NCBI RefSeq assembly: GCF_006345805.1
Contig: NC_043025.1
Span: 558,001-622,000, forward strand
Direction: 5' to 3'
Length of the DNA: 64,000 nt
Source of the DNA: Octopus sinensis
Lineage: Eukaryota
Below the pieces are notes generated by a model. It was not told where the DNA came from, searched no databases, and was given only the letters and a program-made list of their open reading frames with translations. A program made the translations under genes and the position numbers. Shown piece after piece: positions 12,801 to 55,616 of the stretch (position 1 is its first letter; every line of letters starts with the position of its first letter).

Positions 12801-13573
12801 CATGACGTTAAATGACGTTTAATGACGTGAAATGGCATGACGTTTCTTGACCTTAAATGACATGACGTTAAATGACGTTAAATGACGTTAAATGACGTTA
12901 CATATCATGACGTTATATGACGTGAAATGACGTTAAAAATAATGACCTTAAATGATGTTAAATGACAAGTCGTTAACTGCTTTAAATGACATTAAATAAC
13001 ATGACCTTAAATGACGTTAAATGACATGACGTTAAATGACATGACGTTGAATGACGTTAAATGACATGACACTAAATTACGTTAAATGACGTTAAATAAC
13101 GTGACGTTAAATGACGTTAAATTACATGTTATTTGGCGTTAAGTGACGTTAAATGACGTGAAATGAAATGACGTTAAATGACATTAAATGATATGACGTT
13201 AAATGACATGACGTTAAATCACGTTAAATGACACGACGCCAAATGACGTTAAATGACGTTAAATGATATTAATAACATGACGTTAAATGACATGATACTA
13301 AATGGCATTAAATTATATCACGTTAAATGACGTTAAAAGGCATGACGTTAAATGACATGACTTTAAATGACGTTAAATGACATGACCTGAAATTACTTAA
13401 AATGATGTTAAATGACGTGACGCAAAACAACGTTAAATGATATGACGTTCAATGACGTTAAATGACATGACCTTAAATGATATTAAATGACATTACTTTA
13501 AATGACGTTAAATAACGTTAAATGACGGTACGGTGTTAAATGACGTTAAATAACGTTAAATGACGGTACGGTG
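9865..13573. repeat. Telomere-adjacent satellite of 10-bp ATGACGTTAA and 15-bp ATGACATGACGTTAA monomers with a ~1.11-kb higher-order repeat (~3.3 copies)
   Basis: The diagnostic string gatatgacgttaaatgacatgacgttaaatcacg starts at 9865, 10975, 12083 and 13190 (periods 1110, 1108, 1107). Confidence 0.95.
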
Positions 13574-24001: not shown

Positions 24002-26088
24002 AGTTCTTTATTAGCCACACAGGGCTGCACACAGATGGGACAAATTACAAGGCAGAGCTTTTCTTTTGGGGGATGAAAAAAAAAGTGGCGTAGGTTTTCG
24101 ATCAAAAGGGATCGTAAAAGGGAGAAAAGAAAAAAAGAAAAAAAGGGAAAAGAACAAAGAAAAGAAAAAAAAGAAAGAAGAAGAAAAAGAGGAAGAGGAA
24201 CATAAACGATCAATAGGGATCGTGTATCACAGTGTCATGATGTACGGTGTAAAGGGGTAGGCAGATAAGGTTTATCCGTGGGAAGAAAAGCCTAGGAAAA
24301 AGACAACGGTAACCTCGGTCAATATTGTTATATGTTACCACATTTGTTTGCAAGTGGGTAATCCTCTGTTTTCAATTTCTGGGTTCATAGGATTATGCTC
24401 AAGGTGGCTTCGTCATTCATACGTGCCATCCTTTCTACATTCACCCATCTTTTTTTAGAACATTCGCTAGACAAAACTTGCCTCTCTACTCTCACTTTCC
24501 TCTTCAAGTGGTACTTGAAGAAGTTGACGAGAGATTGACCAGAGAGGAAAGTGTTTGTCTCCAATCCTTTCAGACGCGTCCACCAGATGCATTTCTTTCG
24601 CCATAGCCACAAGGATGATGAAAATAGCTCTTCCTTCCCGTTTGAAGGAAAGAGGCGTGACAATATTGACGATAGACTCAGCTGATAAACCGACTCGACC
24701 CACACGTGACAGCAGTTGTTCGACATAAGCCCACAGGTCGGAAATTGTTGGACACTGCACGAGTGCGTGCAGAACGGTTTCGTCGCTCTGACCGCATCTC
24801 GGGCAGGTCGGCCCCGTGTTTCTCGAGCCGTGTCTGTAGAGCTTATCCCGAACGGGTAGTGCTTCTCGGTAGCACTGCCAGGCCAGGGATCTCTGGAAGT
24901 TGTCCATGGGCCCTGGCCGAAAGTAGTCCCGACAGGCGGGTCAGGTATTCCTCGTCGACGTCCAGGTTCGCCCCGAGCTCATCGTCGTACCTCCCCTCCA
25001 CTAATCCCCTATAGAATGCTTTGGTTGTGATGGAGTCACTCAAGGTTGACCCAGGACGGCAGAGTTGCTTGAGAGCAACGCGACACTCGCGATGCCATTC
25101 GCCCTTCCTCGGCCTCTTTTTGATCTACAATTGCATTTCGGTCAAGGAGACGAGCTGCGGGAACGCGTGCCTCACAAACGGTGACCACACCTGTTCACCG
25201 TCGTCTACGAAGAGCCTGAGATGTCGCAGTCTCAGCGCATGTCTGCGCATCATCAACCACGGCATGCCCAGCCCTCCTTTTAACGGGAGTTGGCAGCAAA
25301 TGAATCGTCTGACCATCGGGACGCATCCTTTCCACAAGAAGCGAAAGAGAATACGTTCTAGTTTGGTGACGGTAGGGTCGGAACAAGGCACGACGGTCAG
25401 GCGGTAGTAGATGATGGACGCGATGTACGTGTTCGCCACTTCCGCCCGACCTTTTAGGGACAGTTTCCTCTCGGCCCATTGCTGGGCGAGAGTGACCACC
25501 CTACTCGTTATCTCGTTCCAGTTCTTCTCCATTTGGAGGTCCGGACTGAACCAGACCCCGAGCAACTCGACCGGACCGTCGGTCCAGCGTCCCACAACGG
25601 AGGCGCTGGTGGACGGCATGGGTTTGCTTCTCCAGGTGCCTAGTCGCAAGCCCACTGACTTTTCCCGGTTGATTTTTGCTCCTGTCACTGCTTCGTAGTT
25701 TTTCAGTGTCTCGCCGACCTGCTCGATGTGCTCGTGGCTAGACACTATGACGGTGACGTCGTCCGCGTATGCAGACACGCTCGTCCCGCATCCCAGTTCT
25801 CACGGGATGCCCCTCAGAGTTGCCAGCTTCCGCAATAGTGGCTCGAGAGTCAATACGTATAGAAGCGACGAGAGGGGGCATCCCTGAGGAACCGAACGTG
25901 CGATGTCGAAAGTTCTCGATAGATGTCCATTTACGCGAACTCCCGAACGGATGCCTCTGTACAAAGTGGCTATCCAGCCGCGGAAGACGGGACTGAAGCC
26001 AGCCGCTCTGAGGACTGCCTCCAAGTATCGATGGTCTACCCTATCGAAAGCTTTCGATTGATCAGCGCCCCACCCATGCCAGGTTCGT
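24000..26088 (-). mobile_element. Tx1/L1-clade non-LTR retrotransposon ORF2 (RT + C-terminal zinc finger) and 3' UTR, frameshifted, cut by the gap
   Basis: DQSKAFDRVDH, SVPQGCPLSSLLY and SAYADDVTV RT motifs; CPRCGQSDETVLHALVQC zinc finger; GC-rich relative to the flanks. Confidence 0.88.
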
Positions 26089-26188
26089 NNNNNNNNNNNN
26101 NNNNNNNNNNNNNNNNNNNNNNNNNNNNNNNNNNNNNNNNNNNNNNNNNNNNNNNNNNNNNNNNNNNNNNNNNNNNNNNNNNNNNNNN
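26089..26188. other. Assembly gap (100 N)
   Basis: Run of N; the round size suggests a scaffolding gap of unknown length. Confidence 0.99.
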
Positions 26189-26221
26189 TTTGATGGTTGA
26201 AATGTTTTGTTCCAAAGATCT
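26189..26221 (-). CDS. LRR exon 11 (partial, cut by gap; DLWN..ISTIK, 1 nt short)
   Basis: Same acceptor (ctttactgctatag) as the other exons; one base is missing relative to paralogues, possibly a contig-end error. Confidence 0.55.
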
Positions 26222-28576
26222 CTATAGCAGTAAAGAAAGAGTAAAATAGATTATATGGAAAATATTTGTGATACAACATCAAACACTGTGACTTGAGAAT
26301 GAAAGGAAAAAAAGAAGAAAGATAACGAAGAAGAAAGGAAGAAGAAGAAGGAAAGGAGGAGGCGAATAGAATTAGAAGAAGAAAGGAGAAGAGGTAGAAG
26401 AAAAAGAAGAGCAAGAAGGAATAGGATGAAAAAGGAGAGGAGGCTGATAAAAGGGAAGAAGATGTAGGAGAAAATTAAAAGAAGGAGAAGGAGGGGGGAT
26501 GAGGAGGAAGAGATAACAAGAAGAAGAAGATAAGAATAAGAAAGACGAGGAAGAGGAGGAGGAGAAGTAGATGAAGAAGTAGAAAGAAGAAAGGAGAAGA
26601 AGAAGAAGAAGGAATGAAGAGGAAAAGAATAAGAAGAAGACGAAAAAGAAGGAGGATGAGAGGGGAGGGGAAGAAGAAGAATTGCAAGAGAAGGAAGGGA
26701 AGAACAAGAAAAGAAGACGTAGAAGAAGTTGAACCAGAAAAAGAAGAATAATAGATGAAGAGAAGAAGAGGAGGAGAAGGAGAAAGAGAATAACAAAACA
26801 GAGTTAAGAAGAGAGGAGGAGGAGAGAAGATGTAGAAGAAGAAGAAGAAGAAGAAGAAGGAAGAGGAAAAAGGAGGAGGAGTAGATAAGAAGGGGAGAAT
26901 AAGTAGGAGAAGATGAAAAAGAGAAGAAGATGAAGAGGAGGAGGAGGAGATGAGAATGACAAAAGAGAATATAAGAAGAAGAGGGGTAGGAGGAGAAGTA
27001 GATGTAGAAGTAGAAAGAAGAAGAAGAATATAAGAAGAAAAAAAAGAAATAGAAGAATGAGAAGAAGAAAAGAAAAAGAAGGAGGAGGAGGAAAAGAAGA
27101 AGAAGAATTAGAAGAAGAAGCAGAAGAAGAAGAAAAGGAGCAGGAGTGGAAGGGAGGAGGAGAATTACAAGAAGAAAAAGGAGGAGGAGGGGCGGAGAGG
27201 ATTGGGTAGAAAAAAGAAGATGAAAAAAAGAAGTAGAAGAAGGAAGAGGAAAAAGGAGGAGGAAGATGATGATAGGGAAAAAGTAGGTGTAGAAGAAAAA
27301 GAATAAGAATAAGAATAAGAAGAAGGAGGAGGAGGAGGAAGGGTAGATGAAGAAGTTGAAAGTAGAAGAAGAAGAGGAAGAGCAGAAGAGGGAAGAAGAG
27401 AAGAAGAGAGAAAAGACGGAGAAGAAAATGAAGAAAAAAGAAAAAGGAGCAGAGAGAGGGGGAGGAGAGAATTACAAGAAGAAATAGGAGGAGGAGGGGC
27501 GGAGTGGAGGCGGAAGAGATTTAAAGAAGAAAATGAAGAATAATAATAAGAAAAAAATTAAAGAGAGAGGAGGAGGACCAGGAGGAGGAGACCAGAGGAG
27601 GGGAGCAGGATGAGGAGGAGGAGAGAAGAAAAGAAAAAAGATAAGAAGAAGAAGAAGAAGATGAAGGATAGAAGTGAAGAAAAAGAAGAAAAGAAGAAGA
27701 AGAAGAAGAAGAAGAAGAAGAAGAAGATGAAAGAAGAAGAAGAATAAGAAGGCAGAAGACGAAAGACAAATGAACAAAAATAAAAAGGCAGAGAAGGAGA
27801 AGTAGAATAAGAAAAAGAACAAAAAGAAGAAGGAGAAGAAGAAGAAGAAGAAGGAGAAGAAGAAGAAGAAGAAGAAGAAGAAGAAGAAGACATTGAAAAT
27901 CATGGTGTTTAAGATGAAACTGGAAATATTTTCGAAATATCAGGAAATAATTCAAGGATAGAAAGAAAAATTTTTGGCGAGAAGACATGGCAGAAAAATC
28001 AGGGAATTTACGGAATCAGAAATCAACATATTCAAATGCACTCATACGCATTCTTATATTCATAGTATCAACGACGGAATGCGGTATGCACACTCACATC
28101 ACACATATTCCCATTCAACCTTGTGGAAATATGGTGAGAGAGATTATTTATTTCATATCGCTTCATTGTCACAAGAATATTAGAAAACACACGCTCACAA
28201 GAAATATATCAGCACTTTAATTGTATCAGGCCAAATATTCCAGCTTACAAGTACAGTAAGTATTTCAGGTTTACAGAAAGAATGTATGTGACTATATTTT
28301 TTGAATATATATTTTCCGCTTCCACTTCAGTTGCTCTATATATAAAGGAACATTATATTTTTCCTATTATTTTAATTTCTCTCTCAAATTCTCTCTCTTT
28401 CTTTCACATTGTCTCGCTCTCTCATATTCTCTTTGTATCTTCCTAAATCGTGTTCATTCTACAAATTCGAATTGATTTTGTTTGGCGCAGTCTGAAATTT
28501 TTTACATTTGTGAGCTGATATATCAGCATCAATTATTACTTTCGGAAAATAGTATCAAGAAACTGAACGAACTTAC

Positions 28577-28648
28577 AATGTCTTTAAATTCGAAAGCGCC
28601 GTGAATGCTCCTTCTTTGATGGTTGCTATGTTGTTGGAACCAAGATAT
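28577..28648 (-). CDS. LRR exon 10, 72 nt: YLGSNNIATIKEGAFTALSNLKT(L)
   Basis: tactctttctttactgctatag acceptor, gtaagt donor, open 24-codon LRR. Confidence 0.88.
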
Positions 28649-30968
28649 CTATAGCAGTAAAGAAAGAGTAACATAGATTTATGGAAAATATTTGTGATAC
28701 GACATCAAACACTGTGACTTCAGAATGAAAGGAAGAAAAGGCAGAAAGATAACGAAGAAGAAAAGGAAGAAGAAGGACGAGGAGGTGAAGAAGAAAAAGA
28801 AAAAGAAGAAGAAGAATAAGTAGAAGAAGAAAGGAGAAGAAGGAGAAGAAAAAGAAGGGGAAGAAGTAATAGGAGGAAAAAGGAGGAGGAGGATGGTAAA
28901 AGGGAAGAAGTAGTAGCGGAAAAAGTAAAAGAAAGAAGGAGAGGAGAGGAGGATGACTATAGATGAAGAAGTAGAAAGAAGAAGAAGAAGAAGGAGAGGA
29001 GAAAAGGAGAGAGGAGAGATTGGAAGAATAATTAGGAGAAGATGAAAAAGAAGAAGAAGATGAAGGAGGAGGAGGATGAGAATAACAAAAAGAAGGATAT
29101 AAGAAGAAGAAAGAGTAGGAGGAGAAGTAAATGTTGAAGTAGAAAGTAGTAGAAGAAGAAGAAGAAGAAGAAGGAGAAGAAATATAAGAAGAAAAAAAGA
29201 GTAGAAAAATGAGAAGAAGAAAAGAAAAAGGAGGAGGAGGAAAAGAAGAAGAAGAAGACGCAGAAGAAGACGCAGAAGAAGAAGAAAAAGAAGCGGGAGA
29301 GGAGGGGCGGAGAGGATTGGGAAGAAAGAAAGAAGAGGAAAAAAGAAGTAGAAGAAGGAAGAGGAAAAAGGAGAGGAAGCAATGAAGGGGAAAAGTAGTG
29401 TAGAAGAAAATAACAAGAATAAAAGATAAGGAGGAAGGAAAGAGGAGGAGGAGTAGTTGAAAAAATTGAAAGTAGAAGAGGATGTAGGAGAAGAAGAAGA
29501 AGAAGAAATATGTAGAAGCGAGAGAAGAAGAAACAAAATAAGGAGAAGGAGGAGAAGAAGAAGAAGAATAAGAAGACGAAGAAGGAGAAGAAGAAGAAGA
29601 AGAAGAAGAAAAACGAGCAGGAGAGGAGGGGAGGTGAGAATTACAAGAAGAAAAATGAGGAGGAGGGGCGGAGTGGAGCGGGAGAGAATTTAAAGAAGAA
29701 AATGAAGAATAAGAAGAAGAAAGAAATTAGAAGAGGAAGAAGGAGTAGGAGGAGTAGAAAGAAGAAAAAAGAAAAAGAAGAGAAGCGAGAAAGAAGAAGA
29801 AAAAGGAAAAGAAGAAAAAGAAGAGAAGAAAAAGAAGGAGGAGAAGGAGCAGCAGGAGGAGAGGAAGAAGAAGGAGAAGAAGAAGAAGTAGAAGAAGAAG
29901 AAGGAGAAGGAGAAGGAGAAGAAGAAGAAGTTGAAGAAGAAGAAGAAGAAGAGGGAGGAGAAGAAGAAGAAGGAGACGAAGAAGATACATTGAAAATTAT
30001 GGCGTTCAAGATGAAACTGAAAATGTTCTTAAAATATCAGGAAATAATTCAAGGATAGAAAGAAATATTTTGGGCGAGAAAACATGGCAGAAAATTCAGG
30101 GAATATGCGGAATCAGAAATCAACATATTCAAATGCACTCATACACATTCTTATATTCATAGTATCAACGACGGAATGCGGTATGCACACTCACATCACA
30201 CATATTCCCACTCACCCTTGTGGACATATGGTGAGAGAGATTATTTATTTCATATCGTTTCATTGTCACAAGAATATTAGAAAACACACGCTCACATGAA
30301 ATATATCAGCTGTTTAATTGTATCAGGCCAAATATCCCATCTTACAAGTACAGTAGTATTTCAGGTTTACAGATAGAATGTATGTGACTATATTATTCGA
30401 ATATATATTTTCCGCTTCCACTTCAGTTGCTCTATTACATAAATAACGTGAAGTGAATGACAAAATTCGAAGTTGAATGATAATATCGAAACACGAAGAG
30501 AATATTGAAATAAAAATGGAGGAGGATGCAAAATATAAAATAAAGGAATAATATAGTCACATTTCACACAGAACTACACTTATATATGAACATACACATA
30601 TACTTCAGCTAAAAATATTTGATGCAAACATGTAAACTCACAAACGTTACCATTTCTAATACAAATTCATATCAAAATCATTGAAATTGGGGAACAAAAA
30701 TGAGTTATTGAGATGCGAATTGAAACAAAGCAACTACAATAAAGGAACATTATATTTTTCCTATTATTTCACTTTCACTCTCAAATTCTCTCTCTTTCTT
30801 TCCATTGTCTCGCTCTCTCATATTCTCTTTGTATCTTCCTATGTCGTGTTCATTCTACAAATTCGAATTGATTTTGTTTGGCGCAGTCTGAAATTTTTAC
30901 ATTGTGAGCTGATATATCAGCATCAATTATTACTTTCGGAAAAGTATCAAGAAACTGAACGAACTTAC

Positions 30969-31040
30969 AATGTCTTTAAATTCGAAAGCGCCGTGAATGC
31001 TCCTTCTTTGATGGTTGCTATGTTGTTGGAACCAAGATTT
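30969..31040 (-). CDS. LRR exon 9, 72 nt: NLGSNNIATIKEGAFTALSNLKT(L)
   Basis: AG/GT splice sites, 72 nt, phase 2-2, LRR consensus. Confidence 0.88.
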
Positions 31041-33299
31041 CTATAGCAGTAAAGAAAGAGTAAAATAGATTATATTGAAAATATTTCTGATACGACATCA
31101 AACGCTGTGACTTCAGAATGAAAGGAAGAAAAGGCAGAAAGATAACGAAGAAGAAAAGGAAGAAGAAGAAGGAGGAGGAGGTGAAGAAGAGGAAGGAAAA
31201 GAAGAAGAAGAAGAATTAGTAGAAGAAGAAGAGGAGGAGGAGGAGGATGACAAGTAGATGAAAAGTAGAAGAGAATAAAAGAAGAAGGAAGAGGAGGAAA
31301 AAGGAGGAGGAGGAGAATGATTGGAAGAATAATTAGGAGAAGATGAAAAAGAAGAAGAAGATGAAGGAGAGGAGGATGAGAATAACAAAAAGAAGGATAT
31401 AAGAAGAAGAAAGAGTAGGAGGAGAATAAATGTTAAGTAAAAGTAGTAGAAGAAGAAGAAGAAGAAGAGGAGAAGAAATATAAGAAGAAAAAAAATAGTA
31501 AAAAATGAAGAAGAAAAGAAAAAGGAGGAGGAGGAAAAGAAGAAAAGAAGAACGCAGAAGAAACGCAGAAGAAGAAGACAAATAAGCGGGAGGGAGGGGG
31601 AGGAGGAAATTACAAGAAAAAAAGGAGGAGGAGGAGGCGGAGAGGATTGGGAAGAAAGAAAGAAGAGGAAAAAAGAAGTAGAAGAAGGAAGAGGAAAAAG
31701 GAGAGAAGCAATGAAGGGGAAAAGTAGGAGTAGAAGAAAATAACAATAATAAGAAGAAGAAGAGGAAAGGAGGAGAGAGTAGTTGAAAAAATTGAAAGTA
31801 GAGGGATGTAGGAGAGAAGAAGAAGAAGAAATATGTAGAAGCGAGAGAAGAAACAAAATAAGGAGAAGGAGGAGAAGAAAAGAATAATAGAAGACTAAGA
31901 AGAGAAGAAGAAGAAGAAGAATAAGAAAAACGAGCATGATAGGAGGGGAGGTGGAGAATTACAAGAAGAAAATGATGAGGAGGGGCGGAGTGGAGCGTGA
32001 GAGAATTTAAAGAAGAAAATGAAGAATAAGAATAAGAAATAAATTAGATAGGAAGAAGGAGTAGGAGGAGTAGAAGAAAAAAAAAAGAAAAGAAGAGAAG
32101 AAGAAGAAGAAGAAGAAGAAGGAAAAGAAGAAAAAGAAGAGAAGAAAAAGAAGGAGGAGAAGGAGCAGCAGGAGGAGAGGAAGAAGAAGAAGAAGAAGAA
32201 GAAGTAGAAGAAGAAGAAGGAGAAGGAGAAGGAGAAGAAGAAGAAGTAGAAGAAGAAGAAGAAGAAGAGGGGAGAAGAAGAAGAAGAAGACGAAGAAGAT
32301 ACATTGAAAATTATGGCGTTCAAGATGAAACTGAAAATGTTCTTAAAATATCAGGAAATAATTCAAGGATAGAATGAAAAATTTTGGGCGAGAAAACCTG
32401 GCAGAAAATTCAGGGAATATGCGGAATCAGAAATCAACATATTCAAATGCACTCATACACATTCTTATATTCATAGTATCAACGACGGAATGCGGTATGC
32501 ACACTCACATCACACATATTCCCACTCACCCTTGTGGACATATGGTGAGAGAGATTATTTATTTCATATCGTTTCATTGTCACAAGAATATTAGAAAACA
32601 CACGCTCACATGAAATATATCAGCTGTTTAATTGTATCAGGCCAAATATCCCATCTTACAAGTACAGTAAGTATTTCAGGTTTACAGATAGAATGTATGT
32701 GACTATATTATTCGAATATATATTTTCCGCTTCCACTTCAGTTGCTCTATTACATAAATAACGTGAAGTGAATGACAAAATTCGAAGTTGAATGATAATA
32801 TCGAAACACGAAGGAGAATATTGAAATAAGAAATGGAGGAGGATGCAAAATATAAAATAAAGGAATAATATAGTCACATTTCACACACAGAACTACACTT
32901 ATATATGAACATACACATATACTTCAGCTAAAAATATTTGATGCAAACATGTAAACTCACACAACGTTACCATTTCTAATACAAATTCATATCAAAACAA
33001 TCATTGAATTGGGGAACAAAAATGAGTTATTGAGATGCGAATTGAAACAAAGCAACTACAATAAAGGAACATTATATTTTTCCTATTATTTCACTTTCAC
33101 TCTCTCAAATTCTCTCTCTTTCTTTCACATTGTCTCGCTCTCTCATATTCTCTTTGTATCTTCCTAGTCGTGTTCATTCTACAAATTCGAATTGATTTTT
33201 TTTGGCGCAGTCCTGTCAATGTTTTTACATTTGTGAGCTGATATATCAGCATCAATTATTACTTTCGGAAAATAGTATCAAGAAACTGAACGAACTTAC

Positions 33300-33371
33300 A
33301 ATGTCTTTAAATTCGAAAGCGCCGTGAATGCTCCTTCTTTGATGGTTGCTATGTTGTTGGAACCAAGATTT
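33300..33371 (-). CDS. LRR exon 8, 72 nt: NLGSNNIATIKEGAFTALSNLKT(L)
   Basis: AG/GT splice sites, 72 nt, phase 2-2, LRR consensus. Confidence 0.88.
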
Positions 33372-35656
33372 CTATAGCAGTAAAGAAAGAGTAAAATAGA
33401 TTATATTGAAAATATTTCTGATACGACATCAAACGCTGTGACTTCAGAATGAAAGGAAGAAAAGGCAGAAAGATAACGAAGAAGAAAAGGAAGAAGAAGA
33501 AGGAGGAGGAGGTGAAGAAGAGGAACGAAAAGAAGAAGAAGAAGAATTAGTAGAAGAAGAAGGAGGAGAGGAGGAGGATGACAAGTAGATGAAGAAGTAG
33601 AAAGAAGAAGAAGAAGAAGGAAGAGGAGGAAAAAGGAGGAGGAGGAGAATGATGGGGAAGAATAAGTAGGAGAAGATGAAAAAGAAGAAGAAGATGAAGG
33701 AGGAGGAGGATGAGAATAACAAAAAGAAGAATATAAGAAGAAGAAAGAGGAGTAGGAGGAGAAGTAAATGTTGAAGTAGAAAGTAGTAGAAGAAGAAGAA
33801 GAAGAAGGAGAAGAAGTATAAGAAGAAAAAAAGAGTAGAAAAATGAGAAGAAGAAAAGAAAAAGGAGGAGGAGGAAAAGAAGAAGAAGAAGACGCAGAAG
33901 AAGACGCAGAAGAAGAAGAAAAAGAAGCGGGAGTGGAGGGGGAGGAGGAGAATTACAAGAAAAAAAGGAGGAGGAGGGGTGGAGAGGATTGGGAAGAAAG
34001 AAAGAAGAGGAAAAAAGAAGTAGAAGAAGAAAGAGGAAAAAGGAGAGGAAGCAATGAAGGGGAAAAGTAGGAGTAGAAGAAAAATAAGAAGAATAAGAAG
34101 AAGAAGGAGGAGGAGAAGGAGGAGGAGGAGTAGTTGAAAAAATTGAAAGTAGAAGAGGATGTAGGAGAAGAAGAAGAAGAAGAAATATGTAGAAGCGAGA
34201 GAAGAAGAAACAAAATAAGGAGAAGGGAGAAAAGAAGAAGAAGAATAAGAAGACGAAGAAGGAGAAGAAGAAGAAGAAGAAGAAGAAGAAGAAGAAAAAC
34301 GAGCAGGAGAGGAGGGGAGGAGGAGAATTACAAGAAGAAAAATGAGGAGGAGGGGCGGAGTGGAGGGGGAGAGAATTTAAAGAAGAAAATGAAGAATAAG
34401 AAGAAGAAAGAAATTAGAAGAGGAAGAAGGAGTAGGAGGAGTAGAAGAAGAAAAAAAAGAAAAGAAGAAGAAGAAGAAGAAGAAGAAGGAAAAGAAGAAA
34501 AAGAAGAGAAGAAAAAGAAGGAGGAGAAGGAGCAGCAGGAGGAGAGGAAGAGAAGAAGAAGAAGAAGTAGAAGAAGAAGGAGAAGGAGAAGGAGAAGAAG
34601 AGAAGTAGAAGAAGAAGAAGAAGAAGAAGAAAAGGAGGAGAAGAAGAAGAAGAAGACGAAGAAGATACATTGAAAATTATGGCGTTCAAGATGAAACTGA
34701 AAATGTTCTTAAAATATCAGGAAATAATTCAAGGAGAGAACGAAAAATTTTGGGCGAGGAGACATGGCTGAAAAATCAGGGAATATACGGAATCAGAAAT
34801 CAACATATTCAAATGCACTCATACACATTCTTATATTCATAGTATCAACGACGGAATGCGGTATGAACACTCACATCACACATATTCCCACTCACCTTTG
34901 TGGACATATGGTGAGAGAGATTATTTATTTCATATCGCTTCATTGTCACAAGAATATTAGAAAACACACGCTCACAAGAAATATATCAGCTGTTTAATTG
35001 TATCAGGCCAAATATCCCAGCTTACAAGTACAGTAAGTATTTCAGGTTTACAGATAGAATGTATGTGACTATATTATTCGAATATATATTTTCCGCTTCC
35101 ACTTCAGTTGCTCTATTACATAAATAACGTGAAGTGAATGACAAAATTCGAAGTTGAATGATAATATCGAAACACGAAGGAGAATATTGAAAGAAGAAAT
35201 GGAGGAGGATGCAAAATATAAAATAAAGGAATAATATAGTCACATTTCACACAGAACTACACTTATATATGAACATACACATATACTTCAGCTAAAAATA
35301 TTTGATGCAAACATGTAAACTCACAAACGTTACCATTTCTAATACAAATTCATATCAAAATCATTGAAATTGGGGAACAAAAATGAGTTATTGAGATGCG
35401 AATTGAAACAAAGCAACTACAATAAAGGAACATTATATTTTTCCTATTATTTCACTTTCACTCTCAAATTCTCTCTCTTTCTTTCACATTGTCTCGCTCT
35501 CTCATATTCTCTTTGTATCTTCCTAAATCGTGTTCATTCTACAAATTCGAATTGATTTTGTTTGGCGCAGTCTGAAATTTTTTACATTTGTGAGCTGATA
35601 TATCAGCATCAATTATTACTTTCGGAAAATAGTATCAAGAAACTGAACGAACTTAC

Positions 35657-35728
35657 AATGTCTTTAAATTCGAAAGCGCCGTGAATGCTCCTTCTTTGAT
35701 GGTTGCTATGTTGTTGGAACCAAGATTT
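35657..35728 (-). CDS. LRR exon 7, 72 nt: NLGSNNIATIKEGAFTALSNLKT(L)
   Basis: AG/GT splice sites, 72 nt, phase 2-2, LRR consensus. Confidence 0.88.
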
Positions 35729-35916
35729 CTATAGCAGTAAAGAAAGAGTAAAATAGATTATATTGAAAATATTTCTGATACGACATCAAACGCTGTGACT
35801 TCAGAATGAAAGGAAGAAAAGGCAGAAAGATAACGAAGAAGAAAAGGAAGAAGAAGAAAGAGGAGGAGGTGAAGAAGAAAAAGAAAAAGAAGAAGAAGAA
35901 TAAGTAGAAGAAGAAA

Positions 35917-35949
<33 letters not shown>

Positions 35950-38060
35950 GAATAGGAGGGAAAAGGAGGAGGAGGATGGTAAAAGGGAAGAAGTATTAAC
36001 GGAAAAAGTAAAACAAGAAGAAGGAGGAGGAGGAGGAGGAGGATGACAAGTAAATGAAGAAGTAGAAAGAAGAAGAAGAAGAAGGAAGAGGAGGAAAAAG
36101 GAGGAGGAGGAGAATGATGGGGAAGAATAAGTAGGAGAAGATGAAAAAGAAGAAGAAGATGAAGGAGGAGGAGGATGAGAATAACAAAAAGAAGAATATA
36201 AGAAGAAGAATGAGGAGTAGGAGGAGAAGTAAATGTTGAATTAGAAAGTAGTAGAAGAAGAAGAGGAAGATGAAGGAGAAGAAGTATGAGAAGAAAAAAA
36301 GAGTAGAAAAATGAGGAGAAGAAAAGAAAAAGGAGGAGGAGGAAAAGAAAAAAGAAGAAGAATTAGAAGAAGACGCAGAAGAAGAAAAAGAAGCGGCGAG
36401 GAGGGGGAGGAGGAGAATTACAAGAAAAAAAGGAGGAGGAGGGGCGGAGAGGATTGGGACGAAAGAAAGAAGAGGAAAAAAGAAGTAGAAGAAGGAAGAG
36501 GAAAAAGGAGGAGGAAGCAATGAAGGGGAAAAGTAGGAGTAGAAGAAAAAGAAGAAGAAGAAGAAGAAGAAGGAGGAGGAGAAGGAGGGTGAGGAGTAGT
36601 TGAAAAAGTTGAAAGTAGAAGAGGATGTAGGAGAAGAAGAAGAAGAAATATGTAGAAGCGAGAGAAGAAGAAAAAATAAGGAGAAGAAGAAAAGAAGAAA
36701 GAGAAGAAGAACGAAGGAAAGAAGAAGAAGAAGAAGAAGAAAAACGAGCAGGTAGGAGGGGAGGAGGAGAATTACAAGAAGAAAAATGAGAGGAGGGCGG
36801 GGGTGGAGGGGGAGAGAATTTAAAGAAGAAAATGAAGAATAAGAAGAAGAAAGAAATTAGAAGAGGAAGAATGAGTAGAAGGAGTAGAAGTAGAAGAAAA
36901 AGAAAAGAAGAGAAAAAGAAGAAGAAGAAGGAAAAGAAGAAAAAGAAGAGAAGAAAAACAAGGAGAGGGAGCAGCAGGAGGAGAGGAAGAGGAAGAAGAA
37001 GAAGAAGTAGAAAGAAAAGAAGAAGAAGAAGAAGAAGAAGGAGAAGAAGAAGAAGCCGAAGAAGAAGACACATTGAAAATCATGGTGTTTAAGATGAAAC
37101 TGAAAATGTTCTCAAAACATCAGGAAATAATTCAAGGATAGAATGAAAAATTTTGGGCGAGAAGACATGGCTGAAAAATCAGGGAATATACGGAATCAGA
37201 AATCAACACATTCAAATGCACTCATACACATTCTTATATTCATAGTATCAACGACGGAATGCGGTATGCACACTCACATCACACATATTCCCACTCACCC
37301 TTGTGGAAATATGGTGAGAGAGATTATTTATTTCATATCGCTTCATTGTCACAAGAATATTAGAAAAAACACGCTTACAAGAAATATATCAGCAGTTTAA
37401 TTGTATCAGGCCAAATATTCCAGCTTACAAGTACAGTAAGTATTTCAGGTTTACAGATAGAATGTATGTGACTATATTATTCGAATATATATTTTCCGCT
37501 TCCACTTCAGTTGCTCTATTACATAAATAACGTGAAGTGAATGACAAAATTCGAAGTTGTGTGATAATATCGAAACACGAAGGAGAATATTGAAATAAGA
37601 AATGGAGGAGGATGCAAAATATAAAATAAAGGAATAATATAGTCACATTTCACACAGAACTACACTTATATATGAACATACACATATACTTCAGCTAAAA
37701 ATATTTGATGCAAACATGTAAACTCACAAACGTTACCATTTCTAATACAAATTCATATCAAAATCATTGAAATTTGGGGAACAAAAATGAGTTATTGAGA
37801 TGCGAATTGAAACAAAGCAACTATAATAAAGGAACATTATATTCTTCCTATTATTTCACTTTCTCTCTCAAATTCTCTCTCTTTCTTTCACATTGTCTCG
37901 CTCTCTCATATTCTCTTTGTATATTCCTAAATCGTGTTCATTCTACAAATTTGAATTAATTTTGTTTAGTTCAGTCTGAAATATTATACATTTGTGAGCT
38001 TATATATCAGCATCAATTATTACTTTCGGAAAATAGTATCAAGAAACTGAACGAACTTAC

Positions 38061-38132
38061 AAGTAGTTTAAATTTGAAAGCCCCGTGAATGTACCTTCTG
38101 TGATGGTTGCAATGTTGTTCTCGTACAGATAT
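38061..38132 (-). CDS. LRR exon 6, 72 nt: YLYENNIATITEGTFTGLSNLNY(L)
   Basis: AG/GT splice sites, 72 nt, phase 2-2, LRR consensus. Confidence 0.9.
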
Positions 38133-40569
38133 CTATAGCAGTAAAGAAAGAGTAAAATAGATTATATGGAAAATATTTGTGATACAACATCAAACACTGT
38201 GACTTGAGAATGAAAGGAAGAAAAAGAAGAAAGATAACGAAGAAGAAGAAGAAGAAGAAGAAGAAGAGGAGGGGGCGAAGAAGAATTAGAAGAAGAAAGG
38301 AGAAGAGGTAGAAGAAAAAGAAGAGCAAGAAGGAATAGAAGGAAAAAGGAGGAGGAGGCTGATAAAAGGGAAGAAGATGAAGGAGAAAAAGTAAAAGAAG
38401 GAGAAGGAGGGGGTGTAGGAGGAAGAGAATAACAAGAAGAAGAAGATAAGAATAAGAAAGACGAGGAAGAGGAGGAGGAGAAGTAGATGAAGAAGTAGAA
38501 AGAAGAAAGGAGAAGAAGAAGAAGGAGAAGAAGAAGAAGAAGAAGAAGACGAAAAAGAAGGAGGATGAGGAGGGGGAGGGGAAGAAGAAGAATTGCAAGA
38601 AGAAGGAAGGGAAGAACAAGAAGAAGACGTAGAAGAAGTTGAACCAGGAAAAAGAAGAAGAAGATGAAGAAGAAGAAGGAGGAGGAGAAGGAGAAAGAGA
38701 ATAACAAAAACAGAAGTTAAGAAGGAGAAGGAGGAGGAGGAGAAGATGTAGAAGAAGAAGAAGAAGAAGAAAGAGGAGGAAAAATGAGGAGGAGTAGGAG
38801 TAAGAAGGGGAGAATAAGTAGGAGAAGATGAAAAAGAAGAAGAAGATGAAGGAGGAGGAGGAGGAGGATGAGAATAACAAAAAGAAGAATATAAGAAGAA
38901 AGAGGGGTAGGAGGAGAAGTAGACGTAGAAGTAGAAAGAAGAAGAAGAATATAAGAAGAAAAAAAAGAAATAGAAGAATGAGAAGAAGAAAAGAAAAAGA
39001 AGGAGGAGGAGGAAAAGAAGAAGAAGAATTAGAAGAAGAAGCAGAAGAAGAAGAAAAGGAGCAGGAGTGGAAGGGAGGAAGAGAATTAGAAGAAGAAAGA
39101 GGAGGAGGAGGGGCGGAGAGGATTGGGTAGAAAAAAGAAGATGAAAAAAGAAGTAGAAGAAGGAAGAGGAAAAAGGAGGAGGAGGAGGATGATAGGGAAA
39201 AAGTAGGTGTAGAAGAAAAAGAATAAGAATAAGAATAAGAAGAAGGAGGACGAGGAGGAAGGGTAGATGAAGAAGTTGAAAGTAGAAGAAGAAGAAGAAG
39301 TGGAAGAAGAAGAAGACGAAGAAGAGAAGAAGAAGAAGAAGACGGAGAAGAAAAAGAAGAAAAAAGAAAAAGGAGCAGGAGAGGAGGGGAGGAAGAGAAT
39401 TACAAGAAGAAATTGGAGTAGGAGGGGCAGAGTGGAGGGGGAAGAGAATTTAAAGAAGAAAATGAAGAATAATAATAAGAAAAATATTAGAAGAGGAAGG
39501 AGGAGGAGGACCAGGAGGAGGAGGACGACCAGGAGGAGGAGGAGGACCAGGAGGAGGAGGGCCAGGAGGAGGAGGAGGACCAGGAGGAGGAGGAGAAGGA
39601 GGTGAAATAGAAGAAAAAGAAAAGAAGAGAAGAAGATGAAGTAGATGAAGTAGAAGTGGAAGAAAGAAAAGAAGAAGAAGAAGAAGAAGGAGGAGGAGGA
39701 GGCAGAAGACGAAATGACAAAAAGATGATGAAAAAGGCAGAGAAGGAGAAGTAGAATAAGAAAAAGAACAAAAAGAAGAAGAAGGAGAAGAAGAAGAAGA
39801 AGAAGAAGAAGAAGAAGAAGAAGAAGAAGAAGAAGAAGAAGAAGAAGAAGAAGAAGAAGAAGAAGAAGACGAAGAAGAAGACACATTGAAAATCATGGTG
39901 TTTAAGATGAAACTGAAAATATTTTCGAAATATCAGGAAATAATTCAAGGATAGAATGAAAAATTTTGGGCGAAAAGACATGGCAGAAAAATCAGGGAAT
40001 ATACGGAATCAGAAATCAACATATTCAATTGCACTCATACGCATTCTTATATTCATAGTATCAACGACGGAATGCGCTATGCACACTCACATCACACATA
40101 TTCCCACTCAACCTTGTGGAAATATGGTGAGAGAGATTATTTATTTCATATCGCTTCATTGTCACAAGAATATTAGAAAAAACACGCTTACAAGAAATAT
40201 ATCAGCAGTTTAATTGTATCAGGCCAAATATTGCAGCTTACAAGTACAGTAAGTATTTCAGGTTTACAGATAGAATGTATGTGACTATATTTTTTGAATA
40301 TATATTTTCCGCTTCCACTTCAGTTGCTCTATATATAAAGGAACATTATATTTTTCCTATTATTTCAATTTCTCTCTCAAATTCTCTCTCTTTCTTTCAC
40401 ATTGTCTCGCTCTCTCATATTCTCTTTGTATCTTCCTAAATCGTGTTCTTTCCACAAATTCGAATTGATTTTGTTTGGCGCAGTCTGAAATTTTTTACAT
40501 TTGTGAGCTGATATATCAGCATCAATTATTACTTTCGGAAAATAGTATCAAGAAACTGAACGAACTTAC

Positions 40570-40641
40570 AATGTCTTTAAATTCGAAAGCGCCGTGAATG
40601 CTCCTTCTTTGATGGTTGCTATGTTGTTGGAACCAAGATAT
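40570..40641 (-). CDS. LRR exon 5, 72 nt: YLGSNNIATIKEGAFTALSNLKT(L)
   Basis: AG/GT splice sites, 72 nt, phase 2-2, LRR consensus. Confidence 0.9.
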
Positions 40642-53242: not shown

Positions 53243-54239
53243 ATCTGTCTCACAAATATTGGAGATCTTGCAGGGGTTAAAAAACTTGTCTGATCCTTTC
53301 TCCAAAATCGCTAAAATAAAAAGTGTGGAATTTTAACTCAGGTCACAGACAACTGGACAATATACTGCAAGGTGTCTTATTCGAGGTCCTCATAGTTGCA
53401 TTTGTTCATTGAACAGTTATGGTTCTTTATTGATCTCTGAAATGAATGACCCAAGGTTGACCTTGGCGGGATTTGACGTCAGATTGCCGTGTGTCAGAAC
53501 GCAATGTATTCTACTAGACGGTCAAATGATTTGTGCCAAACCTCGCTCAAGTTATGAACGATGAAAATATCTAACTTATTAAACAGAACTTCAACTTTAC
53601 TATTCAACATCTTGAGTTATACGAGATTTAGGAATTCCATTATTGACACTTTTCTCTTTATTTTACATTAGGATTTCTCATTTTGTCAAAACGTTCCAAA
53701 TGTTTTGAGAAATAGATCTGATCGAATGAATTGATCCACTTTAGTATTAGAATATTTGATTAAAACTGAAAGTTTAAGGTGATTAATGCAATGATGCAAG
53801 CCAATTAACTGGAAATAATCACCTGGAAGAGCAGTGTGTTGCAACAGAGTATTTGTTATGATTGCATGTATCAAATAATTTCTCTTTTTTATTCTATTCC
53901 ATTTCTTGAGACGTTAAATTTTAATAATTTACTTAAAAATTGCGTAAGATTTCAGGTGAACGGGGATACATCAATCAGCCGAAACTTCAATTAAGCTTGC
54001 ATAATTTTGTAATAAGGTTTATTGTGTTCATGATAGGGTAAATTTTACTGATGACATTCTATCAAAAATAAATTCCTCATAATTTGTTAAAACAACACTA
54101 TTTTGATTTCTTCACTTAGGTATTTTAAGAATTTGGCAATTTAAGCGGATCTCGTCATTATCTGCTGTTTAATTCATCTGTTTCATTTTTAATTATAAAA
54201 ATAATCATTTCTTCTATAGGAACAAACCTGAAATTTTGG

Positions 54240-54415
54240 GAAAGGGACAAGTCCTTTACATTGATCTCAGAGATAAATTGCTATTTATTTTACCGACTCC
54301 AAAAGAATGAAAAACAAAGTCAACCTCGACAGAATTTAAAATCGAAACGTAAAGACGAACGAAATACCGCTCAACATTTTGTCTGGCGTGCACAACGATT
54401 CTGATAGCTCGCTGC
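54240..54415 (-). mobile_element. Degenerate Meta-type SINE
   Basis: ttttaccgactccaaaagaatgaaaaacaaagtcaacctcgacagaattt...gatagctcgc matches the 23386 family in reverse. Confidence 0.6.
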
Positions 54416-54868
54416 ATATTCTATTATAAAATTAACACAAACAATAATTAACAATTATTCTGTGACACGATCAACTGATATTATATCATATTACTGTAAT
54501 AATAAGCAACAATTCAACTAATTAATGATATAACTATGTGGAATACACGTTTTCTTAGCACTAAAGTTTTTACACTGTCCGTTCATTGAATATACCGTAA
54601 GATTTGATAAGTTCAGACAAATGACATCAAAGTCAGATACTAGTCATATCCAATCTCTGTGTATGCGATGTTATATATTATAAATTCAATATGGTAAGAA
54701 ACAGTTTATTTGACTTCACAGCAGGTAACTTATCGATTTGTTTTACTCTAACATAAGATTGTGCTTAAAGCTGTGAGATAAACAGCATAAGCGATTAGCT
54801 GAGAACATAATCAATGAGAATTTAAAATATTGGATGTGGAAAATACGTAGAAAGTGTCAAATACTTAC

Positions 54869-55059
54869 AAATATTCAACATTCGTCGGAATTGGTTGTGG
54901 AATTGATAGTAAATTGCGACGTGCACAATATATTCTCGTTGTAAGTGAATTGCAATTACATGTGTTGCATATATCTGAATCAGCTTGAGTCTCCAAAAAC
55001 AATATCGTACACAGTATCAACACAAGAGACCGTCTATATGATACTACGTGGTGAAACAT
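54869..55059 (-). CDS. First coding exon of an extracellular LRR protein: signal peptide + LRRNT cap
   Basis: MFHHVVSYRRSLVLILCTILFLETQADSDICNTCNCNSLTTRIYCARRNLLSIPQPIPTNVEY(L): hydrophobic leader, CxxCxC...C...LxxIP..IP cap; acceptor ttttcttcttttacag ending at 55080, donor gtaagt at 54868. Confidence 0.92.
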
Positions 55060-55616
55060 ATTGCCAGGCGTAGATTTATCTGTAAAAGAAGAAAATAGGA
55101 AATGTCAGAGATTTCAATGTTATTAACTTCAAATTGCAGATTCTCTGAAGGAACTAAAATTCACCCCTGTTCCACATGACAAATATATTTTTGTTTTCAT
55201 GATTGGATATTTAAAGCTAAAAAATTAAATTTCGATAAATTAGTGTGAAGAAATTTATAAAAATATTATAGCTTTAACGCGTAATAATATCAAAGAAAAC
55301 ACCAAACTCACACACACAAACACAAACGCACTCCTACACACATCTGTAACCATACTCGGAGGGGGGTCTAATATATATATATATACAAAACTAGCGAACC
55401 ATGAGTTTCGTAGACCCTAAATACGCAGTGGTTGTAAACCCGGTTGGGTCGTTAAATCCGATGGGACCCCACAAGCAACTGTATTGTATCAAAGGATTTT
55501 TCCTGTACCCCAGTTTTAGAAGCGTTCATACAAAGTTTTTCCTTAAATAAACTATCATGATTTCATTTTACTTACTTTTTTTTTACTGAAAACAAGAATA
55601 AAGCATGAACGTAAAT

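Follow-up and report, generated by a model that had tools for sequence, protein, structure and literature searches.

A recently amplified octopus gene family with one leucine-rich repeat per exon, derived from adhesion GPCRs and putatively encoding mostly secreted binders

We analyzed a stretch of 64,000 nucleotides of Octopus sinensis (RefSeq assembly GCF_006345805.1, contig NC_043025.1, positions 558,001 to 622,000 of the forward strand; hereafter, the window) and found that, judged from its sequence, it contains the 5' half of a gene belonging to an Octopus family that was amplified recently and is derived from a leucine-rich repeat (LRR)-bearing adhesion G protein-coupled receptor (GPCR). 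Since the repeated modules of this family vary almost exclusively on the binding face, most members checked have lost the membrane part, and skin mucus contains family peptides, the family resembles a diversified repertoire of secreted recognition proteins. The balance of probability tilts slightly toward germline-encoded, fast-evolving LRR binders that are mostly secreted, act at barrier surfaces and owe their diversity to the shuffling of units, to selection acting on the concave face and probably to the skipping of exons.

The sequence-only reading of this window had proposed ten 72-nt LRR exons, one per tandem unit, and these were found again without a single mismatch: a pattern consisting of a 22-nt acceptor, 72 nt and a 14-nt donor matched ten sites on the minus strand, and all ten complete exons are stop-free and of phase 2-2. 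The array consists of type A cassettes throughout (types A and B being distinguished by their splice patterns), and the features are as follows.

54869..55079, minus strand: leader exon encoding a signal peptide and an LRRNT cap; ATG at 55059, 3' end in phase 2
50891..50962, minus strand: LRR exon 1, 72 nt, type A; spliced to the leader in the RNA-like runs X1 and X5 (see below)
48144..48215, minus strand: LRR exon 2, pattern match
45406..45477, minus strand: LRR exon 3, pattern match
42658..42729, minus strand: LRR exon 4, one nucleotide different from exon 6
40570..40641, minus strand: LRR exon 5, identical to exon 10
38061..38132, minus strand: LRR exon 6, pattern match
35657..35728, minus strand: LRR exon 7, same sequence as exons 8 and 9
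33300..33371, minus strand: LRR exon 8, pattern match
30969..31040, minus strand: LRR exon 9, pattern match
28577..28648, minus strand: LRR exon 10, pattern match
26189..26221, minus strand: LRR exon 11, initial 33 nt, truncated by the contig end
26222..50962, minus strand: ten exon-plus-intron units in tandem, each 2088-2748 bp, from unit comparison
26089..26188, no strand: scaffold gap of 100 N

Each unit contains approximately 0.6-1.0 kb of unique intron and a degenerate GAA/TTC tract of 1.2-1.7 kb that stops just short of the following acceptor. The units had been described as near-identical; this holds for the unique intron parts, which differ by 1.4-6.9% between window units, but not for the exons (pairwise differences of 0-18 of 72 nt, with seven distinct sequences among the ten) or for the GAA tracts (4-20%). 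The same array is found again on a second contig, C11691, with 98.8% identity over 30 kb, the same order of units and termination in the same exon 11; in exon 2 of C11691, one concave residue is changed and 15 nt are deleted in frame, and this contig may represent the other haplotype of the window array. Exon 11 of the window copy carries a 1-nt deletion that is probably a consensus error, because the duplicate contig lacks it. The 3' half of the window copy was found neither in positions 1-26088 of the window nor in the 10 kb past its left end (C29:548001-558000); a candidate continuation runs from C29:950830 onwards, where the first 36 nt of exon 11 match C11691.

The window gene is one of many. 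A search of the genome (G000) for paralogous arrays, which the sequence-only reading had called for, recovered the leader exon at full length with 81-100% identity in 28 of 61 matches. The type-A splice pattern had 103 matches, compared to none in the reversed control, so that the cassette pattern is not due to chance (one of the 100 listed type-A matches is clearly non-LRR); the type-B pattern had 42 matches, again with none in the reversed control. Thus, there are at least 145 cassette-pattern matches genome-wide, some of them on duplicate contigs, and since several contigs are duplicates, the true number of loci is lower than these counts. Among 109 cassette exons extracted from 14 stretches of G000, leader-bearing arrays comprise about 5-13 cassettes of mixed types A and B, in an order that differs between paralogues; the suggestion of an accordion-like protein with changing number and order of units is borne out in this comparison. 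A few broken leaders and cassettes are present as well. The arrays of C9761, C10451 and C12785 are nearly identical with single-cassette differences (e.g., in the start of one type-B exon), and are possibly alleles or very recent duplicates. The Cys-rich exon that follows the LRRs in paralogues is itself tandemly repeated three to four times in some of them (C29:1825951-1842590, C29:2087014-2101784, C6381:29293-41594, and the protein P0019), so there is a second accordion-like domain.

An octopus-specific expansion of adhesion GPCRs, named group 3, has already been reported, and the accessible part of that account (PMC6408891) gives LRRs in 5 of 22 members, mentions an LRR protein with seven transmembrane segments (7TM) and a Death domain, and finds positive selection at the branch level. 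The window family is the same family, nested within the octopus clade. Using the leader exon, we matched 22 of 26 candidate proteins, all from Octopus vulgaris or O. sinensis and named ADGRG6-like, slit-like or LRRC-like, and the longest of them, P0001, contains LRR, GPS and 7tm_2 domains in a Pfam scan. In a tree of 22 proteins built on the segment from LRRCT to SEA (17 of 39 proteins were omitted for missing anchor motifs), a young clade of 12 (support 99/95), to whose proteins the leader exon is 78-97% identical, lies inside an octopus clade (100/99), of which an LRR-GPS-7TM-Death protein of O. bimaculoides is also a member, and LRR adhesion GPCRs of gastropods and starfish fall outside on long branches. 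The family ectodomain groups with octopus LRR-GPS-7tm_2 proteins, as descent from the group-3 lineage implies; on this phylogenetic and domain evidence, the window gene family is a derivative, by descent, of the octopus group-3 LRR adhesion GPCRs. The sequence-only reading had pointed to the scaffold of agnathan variable lymphocyte receptors (VLRs) and Toll-like ectodomains; the tree, the leader matches and the domains place the ancestry among octopus adhesion GPCRs instead. Membership in the Toll-like receptors was rejected, as none of five proteins scanned gave a TIR match and the downstream exons of paralogues are of the adhesion-GPCR type; membership in the VLRs was rejected, as each cassette is an exon in frame, its splice sites are intact, and RNA-like contigs show the cassettes joined. 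The names slit-, LRRC15-, chondroadherin- and ADGRG6-like are among those under which automatic annotation scatters the family, and this hides it.

The parent adhesion GPCR has the architecture LRR, Cys-rich, SEA-like, HormR, GAIN and 7TM. Two paralogous loci, one on C25 and one on C29, have one exon per LRR and, after these, exons for LRRCT, the Cys-rich domain and the SEA-like segment, with HormR exons in addition at the C29 locus; the HRM match in P0021 (E=0.00079) is below its cut-off. It should be noted that "SEA-like" and "three-finger-like" are labels taken from patterns and models, with no confirmation from Pfam and Atlas. The SEA-like segment has a SEA-like secondary structure in the model, and the Gpr126 ectodomain takes rank 10 among the Foldseek matches. 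The Cys-rich domain had no Pfam match, a limpet homologue having only Toxin_TOLIP at E=0.72. Atlas returned no usable match for the Cys-rich or SEA-like segments, and the LRR part filled the fold searches. Several relatives have other architectures: P0107 of O. bimaculoides, named toll-like receptor 5, has LRRs, is 40% identical in the region after them and has neither a GPS nor a 7TM match in Pfam, so that soluble forms may have arisen more than once; the O. vulgaris models P0016 and P0105 join family segments to MIB2-like ankyrin repeats, being either real fusions or chimeric models. Older LRR adhesion GPCR relatives cluster at C27:8.4-9.7 Mb, C27:17.4-18.9 Mb and C29:1.4-3.6 Mb of G000, and a dense group of over 20 secretin-family 7TM matches with long open frames at C10:79.8-80.3 Mb possibly corresponds to the methuselah-like group 4.

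The frequencies of the individual 3' exons in G000 differ greatly. The Cys-rich exon is near full length at 92-100% identity in 27 of 78 matches, and the last exon reaches at least 92% in 30 of 40 scored matches; the GAIN exon reaches at least 92% in 4 of 44, and the large last 7TM exon exceeds 90% in 1 of 149 search rows, plus a match spanning introns on C9912. The gapless contig C9761 contains the leader, LRRs, LRRCT, Cys-rich, SEA-like, HormR, a degenerate second SEA-like segment and the last exon, and no GAIN, GPS or TM exon was found between its leader and last exon at 60% identity or above. Five more 3' ends (one on C5, one on C25 and three on C29) have the same order, with the GAIN, GPS and 7TM exons absent between HormR and the last exon. 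The last exon encodes a hydrophilic product and terminates in a stop codon; it is the receptor's own, because more distant copies in older relatives lie directly downstream of the 7TM exons. Since all six 3' ends lack GAIN, GPS and 7TM and close in this exon, the six paralogues traced that far are, by their exon content, soluble proteins, and the window copy, which is cut by the gap and has no secretin-family 7TM in the window, would presumably be soluble and secreted as well. Assembly collapse as the reason for the missing 7TM was rejected, because last exons are present downstream in 30 copies and the six 3' ends are contiguous. The sequence-only reading spoke of a receptor; the products of the six paralogous 3' ends are soluble proteins instead.

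A rival explanation, that the window copy is a complete LRR adhesion GPCR signalling through its 7TM with a variable ectodomain, draws on members that do retain the membrane part: contig C8188 carries GAIN, GPS and first TM exons, a GAIN with GPS is also found on C8838, and the models P0001 (GPS, 7TM) and P0022 (GPS, first TM) belong to the young clade. Yet the GPS of P0001 and P0022 lacks the His-Leu-Thr typical of most older relatives, and P0001 may be chimeric, because its 7TM exons have their best matches at different G000 loci. With four close GAIN exons against 28 leaders and 30 last exons, we regard a full receptor in the window as distinctly unlikely.

Representing each repeat in the frame LxxLxLxxN, we compared 56 distinct type-A exons and 24 type-B exons, with C11691 and one indel-bearing exon omitted. 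In type A, positions x3, x5, x7 and x8 have 10-12 residues each (2.6-3.3 bits), and most scaffold sites are near-fixed; type B has the same pattern, weaker at x3. These four positions form the concave beta-strand of an LRR, and the same is reported, as far as the available text goes, for the brown alga Ectocarpus (PMC3341825). With x2-x3 at the end of one exon and x5-x8 at the beginning of the following one, each strand is a two-exon chimera, and any exon skip or swap results in a new strand, the variable residues lying at both exon ends.

We then calculated observed-pair statistics for disjoint pairs picked by intron similarity only (30 of type A and 11 of type B, with C11691 and C10451 omitted). 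The proportion of nonsynonymous differences (pN) at concave positions was 0.376 in type A and 0.227 in type B, compared to 0.057 and 0.014 at other exon positions; the exon-wide proportion of synonymous differences (pS) was 0.199 and 0.081, and the intron divergence in the same pairs was 0.040 and 0.012. Concave pN was higher than exon-wide pS in 24 pairs versus 1 in type A and in 9 versus 0 in type B. Wilcoxon p was 9e-6 for type A and 0.002 for type B. The pN below pS at scaffold positions is indicative of purifying selection. This pattern carries a signature of diversifying selection on the binding face, clear for type B and, for type A, apparent relative to exon-wide pS and introns only.

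These comparisons also bear on neutral churn, i.e., an exon-carrying satellite expanding and converting without adaptive meaning, or a partial assembly artefact. Identical neighbours (exons 7-9), GAA-rich introns, many duplicate contigs, the in-frame deletion in one copy and the few broken leaders and cassettes are all compatible with it. Conversely, the ten window exons are open, the scaffold is under purifying selection with variation concentrated on the concave face, the units have diverged by 1.4-6.9% and recur in the same order on a second contig, and the family is represented by RNA-like spliced contigs and peptides. This explanation is largely refuted, and we consider it highly improbable.

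The splicing evidence comes from contigs of three sequencing runs (X1, X5 and X8, from three studies), compared to window positions 49900-55200; the runs are RNA-like by guess and are not on record as RNA. LRR-LRR splice joints are present in all three, the exact leader-LRR joint with GT-AG ends in X1 and X5, and in X8 the joint is visible through divergent exon starts. The prediction of in-frame splicing to a signal-peptide and LRRNT exon therefore agrees with contigs that join 54869 to 50962, and spliced transcripts, the lack of which was to count against the predicted gene, are represented in these RNA-like data. No such joints were seen among the matches listed for the DNA-like run X15. 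Junction letters vary, mostly reflecting paralogues. In X8, a further exon is spliced upstream of the leader, with no match in the window or in the family loci examined. RefSeq lists 13 isoforms for one paralogue, in steps of 24 amino acids that map to different exon subsets, and isoforms of three other paralogues are likewise different exon subsets; these are automatic models, probably from short reads, in which mis-mapping among near-identical exons could create isoforms, and they provide indirect support for exon skipping in the family.

At the protein level, the O. vulgaris skin-mucus proteome (PMC10138644) contains at least four family peptides (seven spectra) assigned to young-clade proteins, in which they fall within the LRR, Cys-rich and SEA-like parts; window exon 1 encodes one of them, which is common to 27 database entries. 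The family is not described by the authors in the available part of that paper, and the accessible text of a second mucus study (PMC11431876) names "adhesion GPCR G6" without an accession. In the supplement of an ink proteome (PMC10142993), six family terms gave no matches, from which we draw no conclusion. The mucus peptides, together with the concave variation, make a putative immune role of the family plausible.

The same architecture could serve self ligands, as an adhesion or identity code for arms and suckers, neuronal wiring, or gametes and kin, with soluble forms modulating 7TM relatives. According to the accessible part of PMC6408891, group 3 expression is elevated in axial nerve cord, suckers and skin of O. 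bimaculoides, and a protocadherin-like role is suggested; fold matches of the modelled protein include LRRs of the Nogo receptor, NGL and Slit besides VLRs. These expression data, though, were obtained for a 7TM-defined set and, given its Pfam-based collection, would miss soluble forms; members of the close soluble clade were recovered solely under the labels O. vulgaris and O. sinensis, and skin mucus contains peptides of the family. Such lineage-limited turnover is more typical of host-parasite conflict. We consider the self-code possible, though unlikely.

Several observations weigh against a diversified secreted repertoire with a selected binding face. For type A, pS inside concave codons is 0.50, higher than the pN of 0.376 (by a conservative path count), so that patch conversion may explain part of the type-A signal. 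Moreover, exon pS exceeds intron divergence, and this suggests a transfer of old variants, in short patches, between introns that are homogenised; owing to conversion, the pairs are not independent either, which weakens the p values. The site test for group 3 gave no selected residues, and group 3 is expressed mostly in the axial nerve cord, suckers, skin and gills, with neural roles proposed, as stated in the available text of PMC6408891. The RNA-like status of X1, X5 and X8 is a guess, and mucus peptides common to many paralogues may have originated in shed cells or in ectodomains shed by receptors. The GAIN-, GPS- and TM-bearing C8188, P0001 and P0022 contradict uniform solubility, and the copy counts take in duplicate contigs. 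The 3' end of the window copy is unassembled (gap 26089-26188), and the candidate intron at C29:950830 is about 90% identical to window units, no better than other units. In the literature, we found no ligand, induction or haemocyte data.

For the favoured secreted repertoire, we propose the following sequence of events. Each LRR is a symmetric exon within a repeated intron-exon unit, and paralogues differ in the number and order of these cassettes; unequal crossover and gene conversion, perhaps aided by the GAA tracts, would expand, shrink and homogenise the arrays. Amino-acid variation on the concave face is, by the pair statistics, maintained against a background of similar scaffolds and introns. 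Repetition of the SEA-like segment and then loss of the exons for GAIN, GPS and 7TM, as read from six paralogous 3' ends and presumed for the window copy, would give a soluble protein consisting of LRR, Cys-rich, SEA-like and HormR parts and the former receptor's last exon. After secretion onto skin or other barrier epithelia, it would bind variable foreign ligands (microbes, parasites), acting as part of a germline-encoded repertoire or as a decoy for membrane-bound relatives. A bolder variant is a paired antibody-like system in which membrane LRR adhesion GPCR sensors and secreted LRR effectors are expressed cell by cell, with strands recombined at splice junctions and perhaps somatic rearrangement between repeat units; we regard it as very unlikely, and if it is true, a mollusc has arrived independently at an anticipatory repertoire.

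Compared to known systems, the closest analogue in working mode is brown-algal ROCO exon shuffling. The Ectocarpus LRR-ROCO genes, in the available text (PMC3341825), have 72-nt exons encoding 24-aa LRRs, repeat shuffling, concave selected sites and a proposed role in immune recognition, and the octopus family shares the symmetric 72-nt exon per LRR, varying in number and order between paralogues. The algal proteins are intracellular ROCO GTPases, whereas the octopus family is extracellular, animal, adhesion-GPCR-derived and apparently mostly soluble, with whole intron-exon units amplified; none of five family proteins had a Pfam match to the ROC-COR GTPase domain. Agnathan VLRs are similar in their solenoid of LRRNT, 24-aa LRRs and LRRCT with a variable concave face, and the LRR part of the model of P0018, a paralogue, matches a hagfish VLR (Z 15.9, root-mean-square deviation 1.8, 114 aligned), a match tied within 1 Z with LRRs of a TLR and the Nogo receptor. 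VLRs, according to the accessible part of a 2026 review (PMC13428168), arise by somatic assembly, in which an incomplete gene is filled from cassettes lying outside it, whereas in octopus the cassettes belong to a complete gene as its spliced exons, and that gene is of unrelated ancestry; the Thr/Pro stalk and GPI/TM tail that follow the VLR LRRCT are absent in octopus paralogues, which have Cys-rich, SEA-like and HormR parts and a hydrophilic last exon instead. VLR assembly is driven by deaminases and gives an intronless product, and VLR expression is clonal. Crab EsVLR2, which the octopus family resembles in its splicing, is an LRR protein of an invertebrate; its ten splice isoforms vary in LRR length and in the binding of bacteria, and it is a single gene in the portion of the report available (PMC10045472); the octopus family differs in being multi-copy, with exon-unit amplification and GPCR-derived domains. 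Anopheles APL1C/LRIM1, in the sources as far as accessible, are secreted LRR pathogen-binding proteins of an invertebrate, but are complement-linked and of unrelated origin.

The expansion of group 3 being known, what is new here are the copy counts, the concave variation, the 3' ends without GAIN and 7TM, and the splice joints and mucus peptides. The available part of PMC6408891 describes no exon-per-LRR arrays and no members lacking GAIN and 7TM; our literature search, covering sources outside subscription journals, found no description of octopus LRR arrays or soluble forms, and no papers on ten family gene or protein ids. In the accessible text of the 2026 review of immune diversification (PMC13428168), molluscs are represented by FREPs, and cephalopods are mentioned only with regard to the white body and haemocytes. 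For a diversified recognition repertoire in octopus, the family is a concrete candidate, with defined variable residues and mucus peptides, and has an unusual putative origin in the conversion of an adhesion GPCR into secreted binders via GAIN-7TM loss. Questions of ligand, splicing and somatic change become directly testable, with relevance to aquaculture health.

Outside the exons, the window contains several repeats. Intron 1 includes high-copy interspersed repeats at 52732-53262 and 54148-54501, with very high depth in all four runs. A degenerate (CCCTAA)n telomere-type tract of 2.3 kb lies at 7582-9863, about 565 kb into C29, adjoined by an ATGAC-rich satellite of 3.7 kb at 9868-13565. 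Up to the gap, on the minus strand at 24385-26088, there is a GC-rich frameshifted piece that, from its open reading frames, resembles the reverse transcriptase of a non-LTR retrotransposon, and short pieces similar to it are also found near 5000 and 14270.

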